Shown piece after piece: positions 41,773 to 51,044 of a stretch of 64,000 bases of DNA. The stretch lies in contig JAOQAI010000015.1 of NCBI GenBank assembly GCA_025963645.1, positions 137,827 through 201,826 on the forward strand, read 5' to 3'. A model generated the notes under the pieces. That model worked only from the letters and a program-made list of their open reading frames with translations, did not search any database and was not told the origin of the DNA. Position 1 is the stretch's first letter. Every line of letters starts with the position of its first letter. Position numbers and translations under genes: made by a program. Origin of the DNA: Flaviaestuariibacter sp. (GTDB lineage Bacteria; Bacteroidota; Bacteroidia; Chitinophagales; Chitinophagaceae).

Positions 41773-42646
41773 ATGATGAATACTCGAGCCTCTGTGACAA
41801 TGCTAATTTGTTTTCTGCAGCTTTCTTGTGGAGTAACCTCCCGAACAGTTGTACAGGGCAAGCATAAGTTAGATAGTCAAAACTCTGTACAGGTTATCAA
41901 AGAAGTAAACAGGCATTTTCAGATATGGCGTTCAGGGTAGCATCACCCTTTATGATAACAGTAAAGGCATTTATATTACCAGTGATTCCCTGGATATGCG
42001 ACGCATGAATTATCCTGCGTCTACCTTCAAGATTATAAATCTACTGATCGCTCTGGAAACTGGTGTCGTCAGCAATATAGAGGAGATAATTAAGTGGCAA
42101 GGAAATGTACCTGATTCCTCACGCTATGGACTGCGTCCATCCATTTACCATGATATGACGGTAAGGGAGGCCTTTACGGTTTCGGCAGGGTGGGCTTTTG
42201 CAGATTTGGCAAAAAGGGTTGGCAAAAAGAATTACCTGTACTATCTGAAAGCCTGCGGTTATGGAAATGCAGCGTATTCCCCTGATGATGTTGACTTCTG
42301 GAATTTTGGTCCCCTGCAAATCTCACCTCTTAACCAGGTACAATTTCTCAGACAGATGTATGAGGGTGAGGTACCATTTTCTAAAAAAAATATCGACATT
42401 GTAAAAATTTTAATGGTCACCGAAAAAACAGCTGATTACATCATTCATTCCAAAACCGGATGGTCAAAACAAGGGGAGCGGGAACTGGGCTGGTGGACGG
42501 GCTACCTGGAAAAAGAGGGTAAGGTTTACTTTTTTGCAACCCGTATCACACAGCCATCTAAAAACAGTCGGTCCTTTGATACAAAATTTGGAAAATCAAG
42601 AAAAGAGATCACCTTTCTTATTTTAAAGGATCTGAATGTCATTTAA
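41773..42646 (+). pseudogene. blaOXA: Class D (OXA-type) beta-lactamase-like lipoprotein, frameshifted near 41925
   Basis: ATG 41773 leader with LSC lipobox shifts into GVQGSITLYD..PASTFK; YGN, FW..GPLQISP, KTG, GWWTG. Confidence 0.85.
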
Positions 42647-42968
42647 TTTTTCTTTCCGGATAGGGGAGCAATGTCATACAATCTTTTTACTTCAGCTATA
42701 CTCTTAATTGAGTAGTAGGATAGAGTGCATTCATTTAAAAGATCAGTGTAATTCAAAAATACAGCTTTAAAAAAAAGCTTCAACCATTCCATCTATTCAC
42801 GTTATTGTAGTTTCAGCTTCCTGCAAATCTTGTCAATTTGTCCTCTTTGGTGGAGGTGGTCCAAAGTAGTTCCTATTTCTTCCTGTCCATACACTGTGAA
42901 GCCATTATAGGATGATCAGCGAATCTTATTTAGGAACAGTTTTATATTTTTACTTATACTCATACATT

Positions 42969-43868
42969 ATGAATGAATTTTTAAAAACTTCAAACAAAAA
43001 ACAGTACAAACCGGAACTAACAAATTCAGTAAAAAGAATAGGTAGCACAATTTCAGTTAATCACTTTGCCCCATTTATTCCGTTACCAGCAACCATCCTG
43101 GGAACTTGTACAATGATATATTTTGATGTACCAACTTATATTTGGCTATTAAACATAACTTTTGTTTGTCTTGGCACTTTCACTTCACTATTCTTTTTAA
43201 GAAATCCAATCCTACCAAAGAAATCCAATCCGTTTATAGTTTTTGTAATCTTAATAATTTTACTGTTAGGGACTTTCTACGACAATGGAATTATGAATGT
43301 GCATCGCTGGATAAATTTTGGGTCATTGCAACTGAACATAGGCTTACTTGTTTCTCCCTTGATGCTGATACAAATTTCAAGGATTACCAACCCTAAACTT
43401 GCTATTTTATTTAGTGCCATAGCAACAATAATTTTTTTTCTGCAACCGGATGCATCGTTGGTATCAGCATTTTCTGTTTCAATCTTTGTTTTGTTGCTTA
43501 GAAAATTCAAAGCCGAGGTTTTTACAATATCATACTTGCTTTTCACCTTGTTTATGGTCAGCTACGCTTGGTACAACTTAGATAATTTAGAACCGGTTAG
43601 TTATGTGGAAAACATCATTAGTTTGACGAAGGAAATTTCAATGGCTTTATATTTGGGATCATTGATTTCGTTGCTTTTATTGATCATTCCATTTATATAT
43701 TATTCTAAGAAAGATGACTTATCTATTTCTTTGGGCATCTATTTCTTAGTGTTACTACTTGCCACATTATTTGGGCATTTTCCTGTTATGCTAATGGGGT
43801 ATGGAATTTCACCTATAATTGGGTATTTCATCGGTTTAATTTGGCAAATCAATACTAGTAAAACATAG
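42969..43868 (+). CDS. Short FtsW/RodA (SEDS)-like membrane protein
   Basis: VHRWINFGSLQL, LQPDA, PVMLMGYGIS resemble SEDS motifs; start uncertain. Confidence 0.6.
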   Translation: MNEFLKTSNKKQYKPELTNSVKRIGSTISVNHFAPFIPLPATILGTCTMIYFDVPTYIWLLNITFVCLGTFTSLFFLRNPILPKKSNPFIVFVILIILLLGTFYDNGIMNVHRWINFGSLQLNIGLLVSPLMLIQISRITNPKLAILFSAIATIIFFLQPDASLVSAFSVSIFVLLLRKFKAEVFTISYLLFTLFMVSYAWYNLDNLEPVSYVENIISLTKEISMALYLGSLISLLLLIIPFIYYSKKDDLSISLGIYFLVLLLATLFGHFPVMLMGYGISPIIGYFIGLIWQINTSKT

Positions 43869-44964: not shown

Positions 44965-44981
44965 TACAAAAACAAAATAAT

Positions 44982-45055
44982 CTGGCCAGCAAGTGTTTAT
45001 CTTTTTTCAGCAATCGAGAATACCCTCACTTCGGGTATCGCATTTTTTCAATTTT
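44982..45055 (+). repeat. Dispersed degenerate intergenic repeat, copy C
   Basis: gtttatcttttttcagcaatcgagaataccctcacttcgggtatcgcattttttcaatttt. Confidence 0.75.
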
Positions 45056-45898
45056 CTACTCCAAAATTATATGATTCGAGTTCGGGGAAAGAGTAGGGCA
45101 AAATTCAGCATTTTGCTTTAGAACATAAAATTTAAAGCATTTAATTTCAATGTCTTATAATTACTACATGTGACTTATATCATAAGTATAAAGAGTATAC
45201 AAGACTGCGGCACGTTCAACTTTTTATTTTATAAAAAATGTGATGAAATACTAGAGCATAATACATTATTTAAAATACGTTTTCAAAGCATGTTCTATGT
45301 TGTATTATGGTGGGTTGTTCTTGATTACAAGCAATAATAAATTTCGTGCTGCCTTTTTTGGATAAAGGCAAAAAACAGTTCGGATTTGGTTAATTGAAAA
45401 AAATCAATTCTCTTTAGTATTAAAATATTCTTCTAAAAGTCAAACTTATTGCTTTTTGATACTGGGAACACGGTTGTACGACTTCAATGGTCACCAAACC
45501 TCCAGTAGTGCTAATTCGGCCCCTGATTGTGATTACTAATAAGACGTTCTTTAGTTGGTTGTATAAGGGTTATTTTTTTTAATGCTGTTAATTACTAAAG
45601 TCTCACCTTCCAGATACTAACTAAAGGGGGAGCGTTGTGCTGATTGGAGCAAGTAAAATATCACTATTTAGACGTATGGCAAACAGAAGGTATTTTATCT
45701 TCTTCTAAGTAATATGTTGCATTCATGAACCATTCCGCAAAGGCTTCATACTAGCTGTCCTATTACTACTTTGATGTTTTTAACCAGAAATCTAACTGAT
45801 AATTGATGTATAATAATTACTCAATGATGGCACTTTAGAACAGGCATGGATTCTTATACAAGAAAATAAAAACTAAAACCAAAACCAAAACTACCAAT

Positions 45899-48424
45899 AT
45901 GCAAAAGTCCACACCAATCAAAACCGACTTGTTTCGCTTCATAACTTTCAGGAGCCCGGAACAGCTTACGTTTCAAAATAAAAACCTTCGGTTTGTAACG
46001 CATCCGGATTTGCAAAAAAGCATTGTCAATGCCTGCCCTTTGCCAACAGGTAAAGAAGCTACAAAAGTTAAATTGGAAGAATTTACCAAACGGTTTCCAG
46101 CATTTTCAAGCAAACTTGAAGTAAGAAACATAAATCCTGCATTATTTGATTTTGCAAATAATGCGCTAAAGAAGAAGATATCCCTTAATGGCATTGAACA
46201 AGAGGGAAAAGAGAAGATGCAAACCCTGTCGGCCGAACAGGAAACGAAACTTTTTGATGCATTGATAGGGGAAGTCATTTCAAAAAAATCGAAAGAGGTA
46301 AGACAATCTATTGGTCAATTATTAATCGTAAATCACGCTTTAAAGCATTCTAAGCCTTTGGTTGAAATAGGGGTTCGCAAACTTGCCGATATAAAAATTG
46401 AAATCCCCTATCAGGCAATAGAATGCTACAAGCCGTGGTGGTTCAATCGTTGTGGTGGGAGCCTGGAGGGTGTTCAAAATTTAGGTATTGCAGATTTCAG
46501 AAGAGTTGAACAAGAAGTATGTTGCTATGTGCCAGGTGAAGTGTCCCATATAGAAAATATCATGGCAAAAGAATACAAAGAACGCAGTACAAGAAATTAT
46601 GTGAGAACCGAAATTTCACTCGAAACAAACCGAGAAACGGAAATTGAAACCCTCAACGATGTAACAACAGCTACCAGGAATGAAATTAGTTCTGAAATAG
46701 CACAAGTTTTGGAGCAGGAGAAAAGTTCTAACTATGGCGGTTCCTTAGGTGTTTCAGCTGAATATATGAAGGCACAGATTGATGTCAACGCCTATGCTGA
46801 TTTTGCCACTTCTAATTCATCTTCCTATTCTAATACGGAAGCCAAAACCTATGCAGAAGACGTCACCAAAAGGGCACTAGAAAAAATAGTTCAAAAAACT
46901 TCAGAAAAAAGAACCTCAAAAATCATAAAAGAATTTGAGGAAAATAACAAGCATGGCTTTGACAATAGAAACGGCGATAAGCATGTAACAGGTATTTACA
47001 GGTGGATTGATATAATCTATACGAACAGACTGGTGAATTATGGCAAACGCTTAATGGTTGAATTTATGGTTCCGGAGCCCGCTGAATTCTATAAGCGTGC
47101 TCTAAAATATAAACCCATCGATACAAAAAACGAGTCCGTTGATGTCTCAGATCCTCCTAAGAAACTGGAAGAATTTCAGCTTACTAAACCGGCTGATATT
47201 ACCGCGCAGAACATCTCCAATGCAGCAAGTTACTACGGTGTTACCCTGAATACTTTGCCTGCAAGCGAAATTATCCTTACAAAGGATTTATCGCCGATCT
47301 CTATGGTGGACCATAACCGAAATATCAACACGCAAAGTCTATCTGCTATTAATGTTCCAAACGATTATGAAGCCGCTACGGTTATTGGTTCTTATACTTA
47401 TGAGTACCGTGCTGGTAGTAGTACAAGTGCGCAGCAGGCATTTTGTGATTTTACTTTTGGCGGAAATATAATTTATAGCGGGAAAGATTACTCTGGCACG
47501 AAGAAGTCAAAAACCGTAAGCATTAGTGTGACTTTCAATCCAAATATTGGTGGCACCATTCCGGTAAGCGTTGGCTATTCGGGTTGCTTTGGGTTTTACG
47601 GGGCCGTGAGCGTTAAATGCGTTTTAAAGGCCTCAGTAACATCGGACTGGCAAACTGAATGTTATAATAGGCTATTAGCGGCATACAATAGAAAACTGGA
47701 TGACTACAATGCGGAACAGGCAGCAAATTCCCAGGCAGGAGGTATCACCGGCTCAGAGGAGGAGAAGCGTACAAACCCGGCACTAAACCGCATCATTGAA
47801 CAAAGAGAATTGAAAAGGATTTGTATTGAAATGCTCATTAAGCCCTTTTGCAAAGTTCAGGGCAGAAAAAATTTTACGGATCAAAACGCTTGCGATTTAT
47901 ATCAAATACCACAAGTAAATCAAACTAAAGAATTTACGGAGTATGCTTCAATGGTTAAGTTTTTTGAGCAGGCAATCGATTGGCAAATCATGTCTTATTT
48001 GTTTTACCCCTACTACTGGGCAGACAAATGCGATTGGGCGGGTTTAATGCAAAGCGAAAGTGATGATGCTGTATTTCAGGCCTTCTTACAAAGCGGAATG
48101 GCCAGATTAGTGGTACCCATCCGTCTTCAGTTTACCGAAGCCTTTGCATATTATTTAGAAACGGGAGAAATATGGTTGGGTAATGAACTGGTGGCAGGTA
48201 CCCCCAGCGATTTATATTTATCCATAGCGGAGGAAATGCAAACCCTTGAAGGAGCCGTTGAAGAAGAATGGGAAACAAGGGTGCCTACTAGTTTGGCAAT
48301 TGTACAAGATAAATCTGCAAAATTGGAGGAAGAAGGCTTGCCTTGTTGCCATAAAGTGGAAAACGAGGAAACTACCACTAATATTTCGGGATCGGAAAAT
48401 ATTTTGGAAATTATAAAGCCCTAA
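45899..48424 (+). CDS. Large uncharacterised protein, possibly pore-forming/toxin-like
   Basis: 841 aa, no signal peptide; GIADFRRVEQEVCCYVPGEVSHIEN and FFEQAIDW..YPYYW..FLQSGMAR blocks; Ser/Thr-rich alternating hairpin. Confidence 0.8.
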   Translation: MQKSTPIKTDLFRFITFRSPEQLTFQNKNLRFVTHPDLQKSIVNACPLPTGKEATKVKLEEFTKRFPAFSSKLEVRNINPALFDFANNALKKKISLNGIEQEGKEKMQTLSAEQETKLFDALIGEVISKKSKEVRQSIGQLLIVNHALKHSKPLVEIGVRKLADIKIEIPYQAIECYKPWWFNRCGGSLEGVQNLGIADFRRVEQEVCCYVPGEVSHIENIMAKEYKERSTRNYVRTEISLETNRETEIETLNDVTTATRNEISSEIAQVLEQEKSSNYGGSLGVSAEYMKAQIDVNAYADFATSNSSSYSNTEAKTYAEDVTKRALEKIVQKTSEKRTSKIIKEFEENNKHGFDNRNGDKHVTGIYRWIDIIYTNRLVNYGKRLMVEFMVPEPAEFYKRALKYKPIDTKNESVDVSDPPKKLEEFQLTKPADITAQNISNAASYYGVTLNTLPASEIILTKDLSPISMVDHNRNINTQSLSAINVPNDYEAATVIGSYTYEYRAGSSTSAQQAFCDFTFGGNIIYSGKDYSGTKKSKTVSISVTFNPNIGGTIPVSVGYSGCFGFYGAVSVKCVLKASVTSDWQTECYNRLLAAYNRKLDDYNAEQAANSQAGGITGSEEEKRTNPALNRIIEQRELKRICIEMLIKPFCKVQGRKNFTDQNACDLYQIPQVNQTKEFTEYASMVKFFEQAIDWQIMSYLFYPYYWADKCDWAGLMQSESDDAVFQAFLQSGMARLVVPIRLQFTEAFAYYLETGEIWLGNELVAGTPSDLYLSIAEEMQTLEGAVEEEWETRVPTSLAIVQDKSAKLEEEGLPCCHKVENEETTTNISGSENILEIIKP

Positions 48425-48428
48425 AGAT

Positions 48429-49556
48429 ATGGCAGGTAATAAAAGCATTTTTGAATTTGCTGAAAAATTCGGGTATGAAAGTCCCTGGGACAGCTGGTTC
48501 CCGGAGAAGCAATCTGCCTCCACCCGTGCAAAGATTACAGAAGCAAGGATTGAAAAAGCTGCCCTGAATCCATTTCCTAATTTTATTAAATCCGAACCAC
48601 CAAAGGATTCATATGTTATTGTGCCCGTTATAATAAAGGTTGGTATTTACGGGGAAGCATCCAGGGTTATCATTTCCAGCGATGGGCAAACCAAAATAGC
48701 ATCGAAAGGAGGGTCTACTGTAAATACCTATGAAGCTGTCTTCAATGTAAGGGTGCAAAAATCTTTCATTAAAACGGATCAGAGCAATGCACAGGGGGTT
48801 GAATTTAAAATAGTCGTCACCGATAGCCATTCCAAGACGGTCAGTGATACACGGTATCTTAAAACGGTTATGGATACGCGTGGCAACATCACAGATTCGG
48901 AAAACCAAACTGCCAATGAGCATTGGCTAAACTGTAACTTCAGACTGAACAATCACTTCCTCGCTGGTTCTAATGTGGCTACCTCTCGTACGGATAGTCT
49001 GGTCAAACCGGGGGGCACGTTAAAAACTCCTGTCAAAGCCATCGTTTTGCACAGAACGGTGGGGACAAGTATTTCAGGAGCTATTAGCCATAGCAAAGGG
49101 ACCCACTTTTACGTGGAAGGAGGGAGGAAGGGAAAAGACGGTGAAGTATTTCAGGCCATTTCGCTCAAGAAAAGCAGCAATCATATTTTTGATACAGATG
49201 ATCGGATCGGTCATCTGGATGTTAAAACAGATAATTCTATCGGGATAGAAGTGGTGGGTTTGGCATACCTTAAAAAGGATGGCAAATATTATAAAAATGT
49301 CACCGGCCAACCTGAAATTACTTCAGTGCCACCTTTGTCTAAAGAGTATGTTGATATTAATGGAAATAAGAACTATTGGGACGCCCTGACCGAAGCGCAA
49401 ATAAAATCCTTGGTTTGTCTTGTCAAATTATTGATGCAAGAGTTTTCGATTCCTTCGGATATGATACTTACACACGAAGAGATTCAACGCAAAACTGCTG
49501 GGGAGGGCCAGGCGGTTAAAGATGCTATCTTTTCCTACTTAATGGCCGATCAATAA
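48429..49556 (+). CDS. N-acetylmuramoyl-L-alanine amidase (Amidase_2-like) with unknown N-terminal domain
   Basis: AIVLHRT, HFYV, NSIGIEVVG, TEAQIKSL, ILTHEEI. Confidence 0.85.
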   Translation: MAGNKSIFEFAEKFGYESPWDSWFPEKQSASTRAKITEARIEKAALNPFPNFIKSEPPKDSYVIVPVIIKVGIYGEASRVIISSDGQTKIASKGGSTVNTYEAVFNVRVQKSFIKTDQSNAQGVEFKIVVTDSHSKTVSDTRYLKTVMDTRGNITDSENQTANEHWLNCNFRLNNHFLAGSNVATSRTDSLVKPGGTLKTPVKAIVLHRTVGTSISGAISHSKGTHFYVEGGRKGKDGEVFQAISLKKSSNHIFDTDDRIGHLDVKTDNSIGIEVVGLAYLKKDGKYYKNVTGQPEITSVPPLSKEYVDINGNKNYWDALTEAQIKSLVCLVKLLMQEFSIPSDMILTHEEIQRKTAGEGQAVKDAIFSYLMADQ

Positions 49557-49832
49557 TTAGGAAAGATGAACCCCAAAAGGATATAGGATTAAGAGTGTCA
49601 TAAAGCTTCCCTTTAAACTGAAAATTTGTAATGCAAAGCTATTCACCTACCCCGCTGCAAATTTTATGATGGAAATGAACTCTAAAACCATTTATAGCTT
49701 CTTCCCACACATTGGGACCTTAAGCTTCAATTGTCACACGTCCTAACACAATGACCTAAGTTCCAATTGTAAAAAAGTAAAGTTCGGAGTTAGAGAACAC
49801 TCTGCTTAGAGGGGAAAGGGTCATAAGGCCCT

Positions 49833-51044
49833 TCAATTATTCTTACCTAATAAGACATTCAACTTTTGCCTCGTTTCGGAAATTTCTGTAATGGACAATG
49901 CTTTCTGATACCAGGCGATAGCGTTTTTTTTGTCACCCATAGCATTATAATAATCGCCGAAAGAGTCTTTTAGATTTGCATCCCCGGGATAATGGAGCAC
50001 ATTACTTTCAAATAGTTTCTTTGCTATGTCAAATTGCTTCTCCCTCAACGCACGATAGCCTAGGCTGTTAATTAATGATGCATCGGGCAACACTTCGTAA
50101 CCCAGTTGCTTTGAAATAGTACTATAATGTTGGGTAATCAATGAGAGTAGATTAGGGTTCTGGGTACTATAACTTGAATATTTAGGCAGTGGATAATAGT
50201 CAAAGATGAACCGGAGGGCATCATAGGCTGAAATAAAAGAAACGGTACCATGGCTTTCCTTTTCATAGTATGCATGATCGAATCGTAAATTATTGTCATG
50301 ATGTTGTTTAATAGAATGGATTAAGTCAAGATTATACCGGATAAGTTCTGTATTATCAGATGTATCTGATTGAACAGCTGCGGTGTCTACCCCTTTTTCC
50401 ATGCGGTTAGCAATAGTCAAAAACAATGTTTTATTTTGATAGCTGTCTTTTTTTAGAGCAAGTTTGGCTTCTTTTAAAATTTTATGATTATCCCACCAGA
50501 TTGATGCATCAATCGAAATATAAGCGTTAAATAAATGCTTATGGTGGACTAGGGTTTGTATCACCATTAATCCACCAAGGGAATGCCCCATAAAAAGCTT
50601 GTAAGGGGCCGTGGGATAGGACGAATCCATATAGGGAATCAATTCTTTTTCTATGAAGGAAAGGAATCGCTCACCCCCGCCTGAACCATCTATTCCATTA
50701 CTACTACTTGGGGATGCCGTAGGTGTTAAATCTCTGACCCTATTAGTATTTGATATACCGACGACAATCATAGGCGGGCAAACTCCACTGACAATCATAC
50801 TTTCAACAATTGCTGCAACTGAGCGAAAATGGCTTTCTCCATCTAATACATATAATACAGGGTATGTGTTCTTCGAGGGGAGTTTCACCTTTTTACCAGA
50901 GTAGGGTGTATATACCAACAACTGGCGCTGTTGATTAAGTAGGGCAGACTGGATACTATCAGCAAAACCCAGCGTAAAGTCTGTTTGTGATCGGACTTCT
51001 GAAAACGAATAAGTAAAGAATGCAAGAAAAATAAGTTGCTTCAT
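49833..51044 (-). CDS. Secreted alpha/beta esterase (IroE/BesA-like) with C-terminal TPR
   Basis: YPVLYVLDG, RVRDLTP, GHSLGG, ESHG; INSLGY..DSFGDYY..AIAWYQKAL. Confidence 0.92.
   Translation of the reverse strand: MKQLIFLAFFTYSFSEVRSQTDFTLGFADSIQSALLNQQRQLLVYTPYSGKKVKLPSKNTYPVLYVLDGESHFRSVAAIVESMIVSGVCPPMIVVGISNTNRVRDLTPTASPSSSNGIDGSGGGERFLSFIEKELIPYMDSSYPTAPYKLFMGHSLGGLMVIQTLVHHKHLFNAYISIDASIWWDNHKILKEAKLALKKDSYQNKTLFLTIANRMEKGVDTAAVQSDTSDNTELIRYNLDLIHSIKQHHDNNLRFDHAYYEKESHGTVSFISAYDALRFIFDYYPLPKYSSYSTQNPNLLSLITQHYSTISKQLGYEVLPDASLINSLGYRALREKQFDIAKKLFESNVLHYPGDANLKDSFGDYYNAMGDKKNAIAWYQKALSITEISETRQKLNVLLGKNN

Follow-up and report, generated by a model that had tools for sequence, protein, structure and literature searches.

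The 64,000-nucleotide stretch of DNA analysed here (the window; Flaviaestuariibacter sp., assembly GCA_025963645.1, contig JAOQAI010000015.1, positions 137,827 to 201,826 of the forward strand) carries a pair of co-oriented (+) open reading frames (ORFs) that encode an 841-residue protein, P0001, and a 375-residue protein with an amidase domain, P0002; we refer to these products as the partner and the effector. The original prediction, made from the sequence alone, had placed the two genes 4 bp apart behind an AT-rich non-coding region of ~930 bp and had described both products as lacking a signal peptide. The ORF coordinates confirm the 4-bp spacing, the upstream gap measures 934 bp with a guanine-cytosine (GC) content of 0.30–0.35 versus 0.37–0.43 in both genes, and reading the sequences by eye, without a signal-peptide predictor, revealed no N-terminal hydrophobic stretch in P0001 or P0002. 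The coordinates of all features are collected in Table 1.

A common leader on unrelated downstream proteins

A survey of the genes downstream of P0001 homologues, suggested in the original prediction, returned variable enzymes (amidase, muramidase, GH19, DNase and C39 peptidase). Across 80 fetched loci, the ORF that follows the large gene encodes 267–885 residues, and the spacing between the large gene and the toxin gene ranges from a 7-bp overlap to ~400 bp. The mean column identity among 39 of the downstream proteins was 11%, and Pfam identified Col-Pyo DNase, Muramidase, GH19 (twice), DUF3289, Amidase_2 and Peptidase_C39_2 domains among them; downstream genes at other loci matched Peptidase_C39 and, just under the Pfam cut-off, Tox-MPTase4. 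A complete genome contains a partner 56% identical to P0001 that is followed by a 716-residue C39-peptidase effector in place of the amidase.

The downstream proteins are nonetheless alike in their first ~20 residues, which have the main form SIFEFADKFGYxSPFGNW and a variant, DEYWKSSPFGEDSIF. A regular expression for this leader had a single match, P0002, in the 2.57-Mb genome to which the window belongs, and 37 matches in six frames of 1.13 Mb of loci. All but one of these (36/37) mark the N-terminus of an ORF that lies on the strand of the large gene and downstream of a family member; these 36 begin no more than 67 residues from the preceding stop codon, and 33 of them within 16. A hidden Markov model (HMM) of the leader recovered 37 ORFs at E-values of 2e-5 or better, the next best of 1,648 other ORFs scoring 0.006, a separation that is partly circular because most of the matches trained the model. 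When the leader itself served as the starting point of a scan, two metagenome matches emerged, both directly behind a family member. At some loci, two or three leader-tagged genes stand in tandem.

Other searches with the leader or the effector were negative. A protein search with effector residues 1–40 returned the query itself only, a loose DNA pattern for the leader matched at a rate not above the control, and the effector profile had zero matches in 300 genomes, including genomes that carry the family, and is therefore uninformative. Complex prediction for the whole partner with effector residues 1–60 returned a score of 0.00 ('no answer'), with controls not run, and has no bearing on whether the two bind. 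A constant N-terminal part joined to variable toxin domains is a defining trait of polymorphic toxins, and the leader and its effectors display this arrangement. At eight loci (L051, L040, L026, L032, L069, L073, L081 and L083), the first downstream ORF lacks the main leader, and these proteins have in common other beginnings, RITHNSRPHxxF...W..Y or YEYGMxxFxFK, which makes it probable that there is more than one class of leader.

The ~170-residue N-terminal region of P0002, previously described as an unknown domain, resolves into the leader of ~25 residues and a β-rich spacer. The spacer gave a weak Fn3-like match (E 0.19, below threshold) and is possibly, as judged from its sequence, Ig/Fn3-like. 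The original prediction had also read the amidase as ending in KTAGEG instead of the usual KxCPG, which is the case throughout the subfamily: the C-terminal string of P0002, HEEIQRKTAGEG, is invariant, as are residues H208, E274, H349, K355, T356, G358, E359 and G360. The invariance of KTAGEG identifies it as a conserved trait of a toxin-type subfamily and not as decay.

In Amidase_2 enzymes, the third zinc ligand is the Cys or Asp of the KxCPG/TDPG motif. The corresponding position in P0002 presumably reads Ala357, to go by the motifs of T7 lysozyme and AmpD without a structural alignment, and the invariant Glu359 may replace the Cys/Asp ligand. The effector thus resembles the Amidase_2/PGRP/AmpD/T7 lysozyme family (PF01510) in retaining the two His residues, the Glu of the IGIE motif and the Lys, and differs from it in having Ala at the Cys/Asp position and an invariant Glu two residues further on. 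The nearest solved amidases match P0002 only at E ~1. The same amidase domain occurs behind leader type A (P0271 and P0272), behind leader type B (P0273, P0274, P0277 and P0278) and at the C-terminus of RHS-repeat proteins (P0306, P0312 and P0313). A toxin domain held in common with other delivery classes, here Rhs, is a further trait of polymorphic toxins.

Family and architecture of the 841-residue partner

A word-indexed search recovered at least 963 relatives of P0001, ~830–850 residues long and all annotated 'hypothetical', and an exhaustive profile search recovered 3,864 clusters at 50% identity, of which 2,223 scored below 1e-30. In a scan of one genome per species, relatives were present in 432 species; carriers were mostly Bacteroidota (Flavobacteriales, Chitinophagales, Cytophagales and others), together with a few metagenome-assembled genomes (MAGs) labelled Rhodobacter, Planctomycetota, Desulfobulbaceae, Gammaproteobacteria or Saccharibacteria. 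Cultivable carriers include Olleya, Dokdonia, Tenacibaculum, Taishania and Chryseobacterium sp. MFBS3-17. When Bacteroidota were sampled evenly, 11 of 299 high-quality genomes contained the family, and 0 of 16 from the window's own taxonomic family did, an occurrence that marks the partner as a sporadic accessory gene. P0001 had no match in Pfam, NCBIfam, PADLOC or PHROGs, its profile had none among PDB sequences, and the family was not described in any paper of the literature searched. Neither short nor long forms of the partner contained a recognised trafficking or secretion domain in Pfam or NCBIfam.

The conserved core of the family spans residues ~186–840 of P0001. Short forms precede this core with a 185-residue N-domain, whereas long forms reach 1,100–1,540 residues and align to P0001 as two stretches (residues 3–175 and 190–822), with ~300 additional residues inserted between residues ~175 and ~190 and occasionally a C-terminal extension. 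Six long forms searched against Pfam matched only DUF3570, at a sub-threshold score, across the Ser/Thr-rich region. Short-form modules adjoin Tn7-like genes (TnsA-like, Mu-type transposase, TniB and TniQ; L086, 7872–12005) or RteC and a tyrosine integrase (L089, 11164–12963), and excisionase-type helix-turn-helix genes are among the neighbours at some family loci; the partner-effector module travels on mobile elements.

The AlphaFold2 model of P0001 has a mean predicted local distance difference test (pLDDT) score of 69, with confident regions at residues 11–210, 370–610 and 630–800 and scores below 50 at residues 213–367 and 799–841. The first of the two most conserved segments contains the invariant residues C208, C209, E214, S216 and N220, and the second contains H352, G353, D355, N356, R368, W369 and D371; in the model, the long β-strand of the second segment pairs with that of the first.

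The β-rich insert that had been predicted at residues ~450–575 was identified as a jelly roll at residues 455–577. Its best match in VIA is a nanovirus capsid protein (Z 9.7, root-mean-square deviation 2.9, 111 aligned residues), followed by the birnavirus VP2 P domain, PorU and tail proteins (Z 8.1–9.4) and by TNF/C1q heads and carbohydrate-binding modules (Z 7–7.7); the Foldseek results concur. Because the scores are nearly tied across viral, TNF/C1q and carbohydrate-binding folds, these classes are not separable. The jelly roll is the least conserved region of the protein, with a mean top-residue frequency of 0.24 versus 0.75–0.80 in the two conserved segments. P0024 is 92–98% identical to P0001 in the conserved segments and 27% identical in the jelly roll, and other close relatives retain 60–74% identity in the jelly roll; the jelly roll is exchanged as a cassette.

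When the C-terminal half was folded alone (106 sequences), residues 578–757 reached pLDDT values above 90. The best VIA match of this sub-model was Z 3.2, with zero chains at Z ≥5, and the best Foldseek match had an E-value of 0.2. The aromatic C-terminal blocks to which the original prediction had drawn attention are among the best conserved columns. With the full model as query, the PDB (Foldseek and VIA wide), BFVD and the ESM Atlas yielded no matches other than those to the jelly roll or to unnamed clusters, and an ESM Atlas feature search with the partner returned hypothetical clusters only. Approximately ten cysteines show little or no variation, among them the vicinal pairs C208–C209 (46520–46525) and C816–C817; in this signal-less partner, they may form a metal site or post-release disulfides.

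Between the two conserved segments lies the alternating hairpin, flanked by Glu/Thr/Ser-rich segments, that had been noted in the sequence and that is now seen as a pattern common to 130 cluster representatives. In these sequences, hydrophobic columns (0.64–0.98) alternate with small-polar columns (0.00–0.30) over residues 279–286 and 294–303: columns 279, 281, 283 and 285 are 83–89% hydrophobic, columns 280, 282, 284 and 286 are 0–5% hydrophobic and chiefly Gly, Ser or Asn, and the alternation resumes in columns 294–302 beyond a short turn. Aromatic residues stand at both ends of the hairpin, and Ser, Thr and Asn abound in its flanks. The period-2 signal is dominant at residues 270–310, the adjoining segments showing helix-type periodicity, and the alternation is retained at a low residue identity (0.36). 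A hairpin of ~2 × 10 residues with two alternating faces, hydrophobic and small-polar, and Ser/Thr-rich flanks is among the traits of β-barrel pore-forming toxins, and the partner has one. The pattern matches that expected of a strand pair whose two faces contact lipid and water, respectively, and would be compatible with, but not proof of, a pore.

Immunity-like genes and the surroundings of the pair

All four related amidase loci share the order partner (839–900 residues), amidase and a gene of ~235 codons. The three ~235-residue proteins that were read (one of them encoded at L086, 7116–7829) carry a lipoprotein signal and are 35–53% identical to one another. At short-form loci, a regular expression scores the ORF after the leader-tagged effector as lipoprotein-like in 12 of 19 cases and inspection by eye in ~15 of 19, whereas at long-form loci the figure is 0 of 10, with small cytosolic proteins instead; these counts come from loci L006–L085, which are related and therefore not independent. 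One long-form-type downstream ORF, tested elsewhere, is of the SUKH immunity type, and long-form effectors are approximately twice the length of short-form effectors. The contrast between exported and cytosolic downstream ORFs suggests that short forms serve toxins acting in the periplasm and long forms serve toxins acting in the cytoplasm. An immunity gene directly downstream of the toxin gene is usual in polymorphic toxin loci; a candidate stands there in the relatives and is missing at the present locus.

Of the 35 long-form loci, 10 have a CHAP endolysin and a Phage_holin_4_1 holin no more than 7 kb away, as against 0 of the 28 short-form loci, and neither Phage_holin_4_1 nor CHAP had a match in the window's own genome, which is 63% complete. 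The marine Flavobacteriaceae long-form loci L074 (13593–17504), L083 (14494–17432) and L067 (12930–17484) contain a conserved block consisting of a 166-residue endonuclease V-like gene, the CHAP hydrolase, the Phage_holin_4_1 holin and one or two proteins that start with MKQNKETLKKYFETGD. The latter are 137–598 residues long, have no Pfam match and may be fibre-like accessory proteins. No further conserved gene accompanies the pair in the loci examined, and other virion genes are absent from them.

In the window, the gap upstream of the pair contains zero ORFs longer than 55 residues, no Rfam match and no excess of promoter- or terminator-like sites over shuffled controls; it is probably the promoter region of the pair. 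Downstream of the amidase, 276 bp of non-coding DNA (49557–49832) precede a convergent esterase/tetratricopeptide-repeat gene (49833–51044). The divergent lipoprotein-like ORF on the other side of the gap had no Pfam match and no counterpart at any other locus examined; it was considered as the missing immunity gene and rejected, being dissimilar to the conserved ~235-residue gene and unseen at other loci. This ORF and a 318-residue polytopic membrane protein (42912–43868, no Pfam match) sit between the AT-rich gap and a 216-residue ORF (41996–42646) with a partial match to a penicillin-binding protein transpeptidase domain (profile positions 42–283 of 299). The 216-residue ORF is very short for a penicillin-binding protein and may therefore be a gene fragment adjoining the locus.

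Table 1 Features of the locus, with positions counted from the first nucleotide of the window.
Feature	Position	Strand	Basis or remark
Conserved partner, 841 residues, short form of a large unnamed family	45899..48424	+	Homologue searches
N-terminal helical domain of partner, variable, aa 1–185	45899..46453	+	pLDDT 65–91; mean top-residue frequency 0.34
Most conserved segment 1, aa 186–232, GIADFRRVEQEVCCYVPGEVSHIENI	46454..46594	+	Conservation 0.75; strand 192–212
Amphipathic β-hairpin, aa 277–303, Ser/Thr/Glu-rich amphipathic helices either side, candidate membrane-inserting element	46727..46807	+	
Most conserved segment 2, aa 351–395, KHGFDNR...GIYRWID...NYGKRL	46949..47083	+	Conservation 0.80; strand 365–392
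Jelly-roll insert, aa 455–577, hypervariable, candidate receptor-binding domain	47261..47629	+	VIA, Foldseek
Helical hairpin and α/β domain, aa 578–800, aromatic blocks FYPYYWADKCDW	47630..48298	+	Confident sub-model
Second invariant Cys-Cys, aa 816–817, GLPCC, C-terminal tail	48344..48349	+	Invariant G813, L814, P815, C816, C817
Leader-tagged effector, 375 residues, N-acetylmuramoyl-L-alanine amidase, candidate warhead	48429..49556	+	Pfam, homologues
N-terminal leader, aa 1–25, SIFEFAEKFGYESPW, common to otherwise unrelated downstream proteins	48429..48503	+	Alignment, regular expression, HMM
β-rich spacer domain, aa ~45–170	48561..48938	+	Common only to closest amidase effectors
Amidase_2 catalytic domain, aa 200–355	49026..49493	+	PF01510, 46 bits, cut-off 26
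KTAGEG motif after Amidase_2 domain	49491–49508	+	Invariant in subfamily
AT-rich non-coding region 5' of pair	44965..45898	.	GC, ORF, Rfam and site scans; no defined element
Divergent lipoprotein-like ORF, 186 residues	44404..44964	-	Signal-plus-Cys N-terminus; neighbour only, membership not shown

A proposed delivery module, its rivals and known systems

We lean towards reading the pair as the central part of a polymorphic toxin module, antibacterial and hitherto undescribed, in which the partner is an extracellular carrier. In this reading, the 375-residue protein is a swappable antibacterial warhead and not a lysis enzyme, since its domain is reused in Rhs toxins, it carries the leader, and its relatives are followed by genes for exported partner proteins. 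The exchangeable jelly roll, the hairpin, the conserved cysteines and the exported immunity-like neighbours together argue that the large partner acts outside the producer. The effector would consist of the leader of ~25 residues, the β-rich spacer and an amidase that acts in the periplasm of a rival, and the 841-residue protein would be a non-enzymatic, conserved partner that every such toxin requires and that works outside the producer, most likely as a carrier. Its jelly-roll insert would bind a surface receptor on the target, the amphipathic hairpin would insert into the target outer membrane, probably after oligomerisation, and the effector, linked to the partner through its leader, would be carried across. 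Leader-partner binding, oligomerisation, pore formation, extracellular action and the exit route are steps that we infer. A more specific version, which we hold only tentatively and regard as unlikely in its full detail, is a two-component bacteriocin akin to an anthrax-type binary toxin directed against bacteria, with a large protein of novel fold that binds the rival cell through the jelly roll, assembles, drives its hairpins through the outer membrane and threads any leader-tagged enzyme into the periplasm, the long forms, which have ~300 additional residues and larger effectors, carrying their cargo on to the cytoplasm. The idea of a delivery pair had already been put forward in the original prediction; the swappable leader-tagged enzymes with their immunity-like followers and the conserved hairpin lend it partial support, while the pore-former fold that it invoked was not retrieved.

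Several observations weigh against an extracellular carrier. Signal peptides are absent, and no export or lysis function was found near the 28 short-form loci or in the 63%-complete genome. The alternation is also compatible with an ordinary strand pair, either buried or at an interface, and the hairpin region has a pLDDT below 50 in the monomer model. Comparison with aerolysin, MACPF and anthrax protective antigen (PA) folds, which had been suggested as a check, retrieved none of these: neither the whole model, with its low-confidence hairpin region, nor the C-terminal model had such a fold among its matches from Foldseek (PDB), VIA wide or BFVD, and the fold searches found no known fold outside the jelly roll. 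The C-terminal extensions of 11 long forms do not contain the leader, and a fused partner-effector was not found. The cognate immunity-like gene is absent downstream of this amidase, tblastn detected no copy in the 63%-complete genome, and such an absence is odd for an active weapon. Finally, many loci come from MAGs, and kinship among the loci inflates the counts.

The serious rival is a large protein that acts inside the producer and does not itself reach the target, as a chaperone, adaptor or gate that recognises the leader and passes the effectors to an export route encoded elsewhere, for instance a novel secretion system or vesicles; we judge this to be rather unlikely, though it has real weight. 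The lack of a signal peptide on both proteins, the strict linkage of the leader to the partner gene and the lack of lysis genes near short-form loci are all in keeping with it, and the conserved polar segments at residues 186–232 and 351–395 resemble a binding or catalytic site. It is hard to see, however, why an intracellular adaptor should require a hypervariable jelly roll that is swapped as a cassette and resembles those of fibre tips and capsid surfaces, or a conserved amphipathic hairpin with a small-polar face. No other conserved gene accompanies the pair, and TssC (PF05943) was found neither in the window's own genome (G000, 63% complete) nor in four other carriers, three of them single-chromosome assemblies, in a search that detected it in E. 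coli as the control.

It is improbable that the pair is a lysis or release module, with the large protein opening the inner membrane of the producer in the manner of a giant holin and the amidase serving as its endolysin, for type-10-like release of other goods or for altruistic suicide. Signal-less amidases, muramidases and GH19 enzymes are typical endolysin types, the amphipathic hairpin could insert from inside, and phage-type CHAP and holin genes lie near some long-form loci. These loci, however, have the holin-endolysin pair in addition to the effector, and a colicin-type DNase, C39 peptidases and the weak Tox-MPTase4 match with cytosolic SUKH partners are unfit as endolysins. The original prediction had offered lysis-driven, type-10-like release as its second possibility; for the present locus it finds no support, given the effector leader on the amidase, the ~235-residue gene behind the amidase in 4/4 related loci (exported lipoproteins in the three read), the reuse of the domain as an Rhs warhead and the restriction of holin-endolysin pairs to the neighbourhood of some long forms (10/35 versus 0/28).

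Less probable again is that the pair constitutes the cargo and adaptor of a contractile injection system encoded elsewhere, whether a type VI secretion system (T6SS) or an extracellular one. The repertoire of wall hydrolases and nucleases with lipoprotein immunity does resemble T6SS effector-immunity pairs of the Tae/Tge type, but VgrG, PAAR and Hcp domains were found neither in the partner nor in the effectors, and TssC was missing from the five carriers (the sheath genes of extracellular systems were not searched for). We give least credence to the large protein being a structural component of a mobile element or virus-like particle with the toxin link as incidental island cargo: viral capsid and tail proteins are among the best jelly-roll matches and the loci adjoin Tn7-like, integrase/RteC and excisionase-type genes, but PHROG matches and other virion genes are lacking, TNF/C1q and carbohydrate-binding modules match the jelly roll with Z-scores on a par with the viral ones, and the toxin gene is immediately adjacent and leader-tagged across many loci.

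If the carrier reading is correct, a device that delivers antibacterial enzymes and lies outside the numbered secretion systems is encoded by several thousand protein clusters, in Bacteroidota and in other, scattered phyla; it would be built on a fold absent from the PDB and addressed by a 20-residue tag that would in principle be transferable to other cargo. This would add a new mode of trafficking to the catalogue of polymorphic toxins and would account for many gene pairs of the type 'hypothetical protein plus orphan lysin' among genomes from marine and freshwater settings. The split between short and long forms, with exported versus cytosolic immunity, would then offer a handle on how one versus two membranes of a Gram-negative target are crossed. 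The present analysis contributes the short form, the specific shared leader, the conserved hairpin pattern, the exchange of the jelly-roll cassette, the C-terminal domain modelled confidently without a PDB match, the split in immunity type and the absent immunity gene at this locus.

The framework nearest to the module is that of the polymorphic toxin systems (Zhang, de Souza, Anantharaman, Iyer, Aravind 2012, PMC3482391). As in those systems, a constant trafficking part is combined with interchangeable toxin domains, immunity genes follow downstream (in the relatives), spare cassettes stand in tandem, warheads are held in common with Rhs toxins, and the distribution is patchy and mobile. Unlike in those systems, the constant part is split into a ~20-residue leader and a separate protein of 840–1,500 residues whose fold has no known match, the T5SS (type V), T6SS, T7SS (type VII), PrsW, MuF, TANFOR and signal-peptide trafficking domains are absent, and the present locus has no immunity gene. 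In type 10 secretion, or lysis-cassette release, of Tc toxins, for example in Yersinia entomophaga, a holin-endolysin cassette releases signal-less large proteins (PMC10101115). The CHAP and holin genes near the long-form loci recall this arrangement; unlike type 10 secretion, the short-form loci and the window's own genome as assembled have no such cassette, and the amidase is an effector and not the release enzyme.

The remaining comparisons concern toxins that attack a cell from outside. BSAP are single MACPF proteins of Bacteroidales that attack the outer membrane of rival Gram-negative bacteria from outside; they provide a precedent from the same phylum, and differ in that the present module has a separate effector and its partner has no MACPF match. 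Pesticin and colicin M are signal-less, wall-targeting enzymes that cross the target outer membrane and are countered by exported immunity proteins, and the effectors resemble them in having a short linear motif at the extreme N-terminus and putative exported immunity proteins. Colicins combine receptor-binding and translocation domains in one polypeptide, and their N-terminal motif is a TonB or Tol box. In the present module, by contrast, the constant partner is a separate large protein, and the leader is found only beside it. By analogy with anthrax PA and its lethal and edema factors, a separate receptor-binding component would contribute one amphipathic hairpin per subunit, and interchangeable enzymes would dock through a common N-terminal part, with the N-terminus entering first. 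Similarity to PA in fold or sequence was not found, and the targets of the module, unlike those of PA, would be bacteria. The logic of the partner may thus be likened to that of a binary AB toxin, or of a colicin whose receptor and translocation domains have been split off into a chain of their own.

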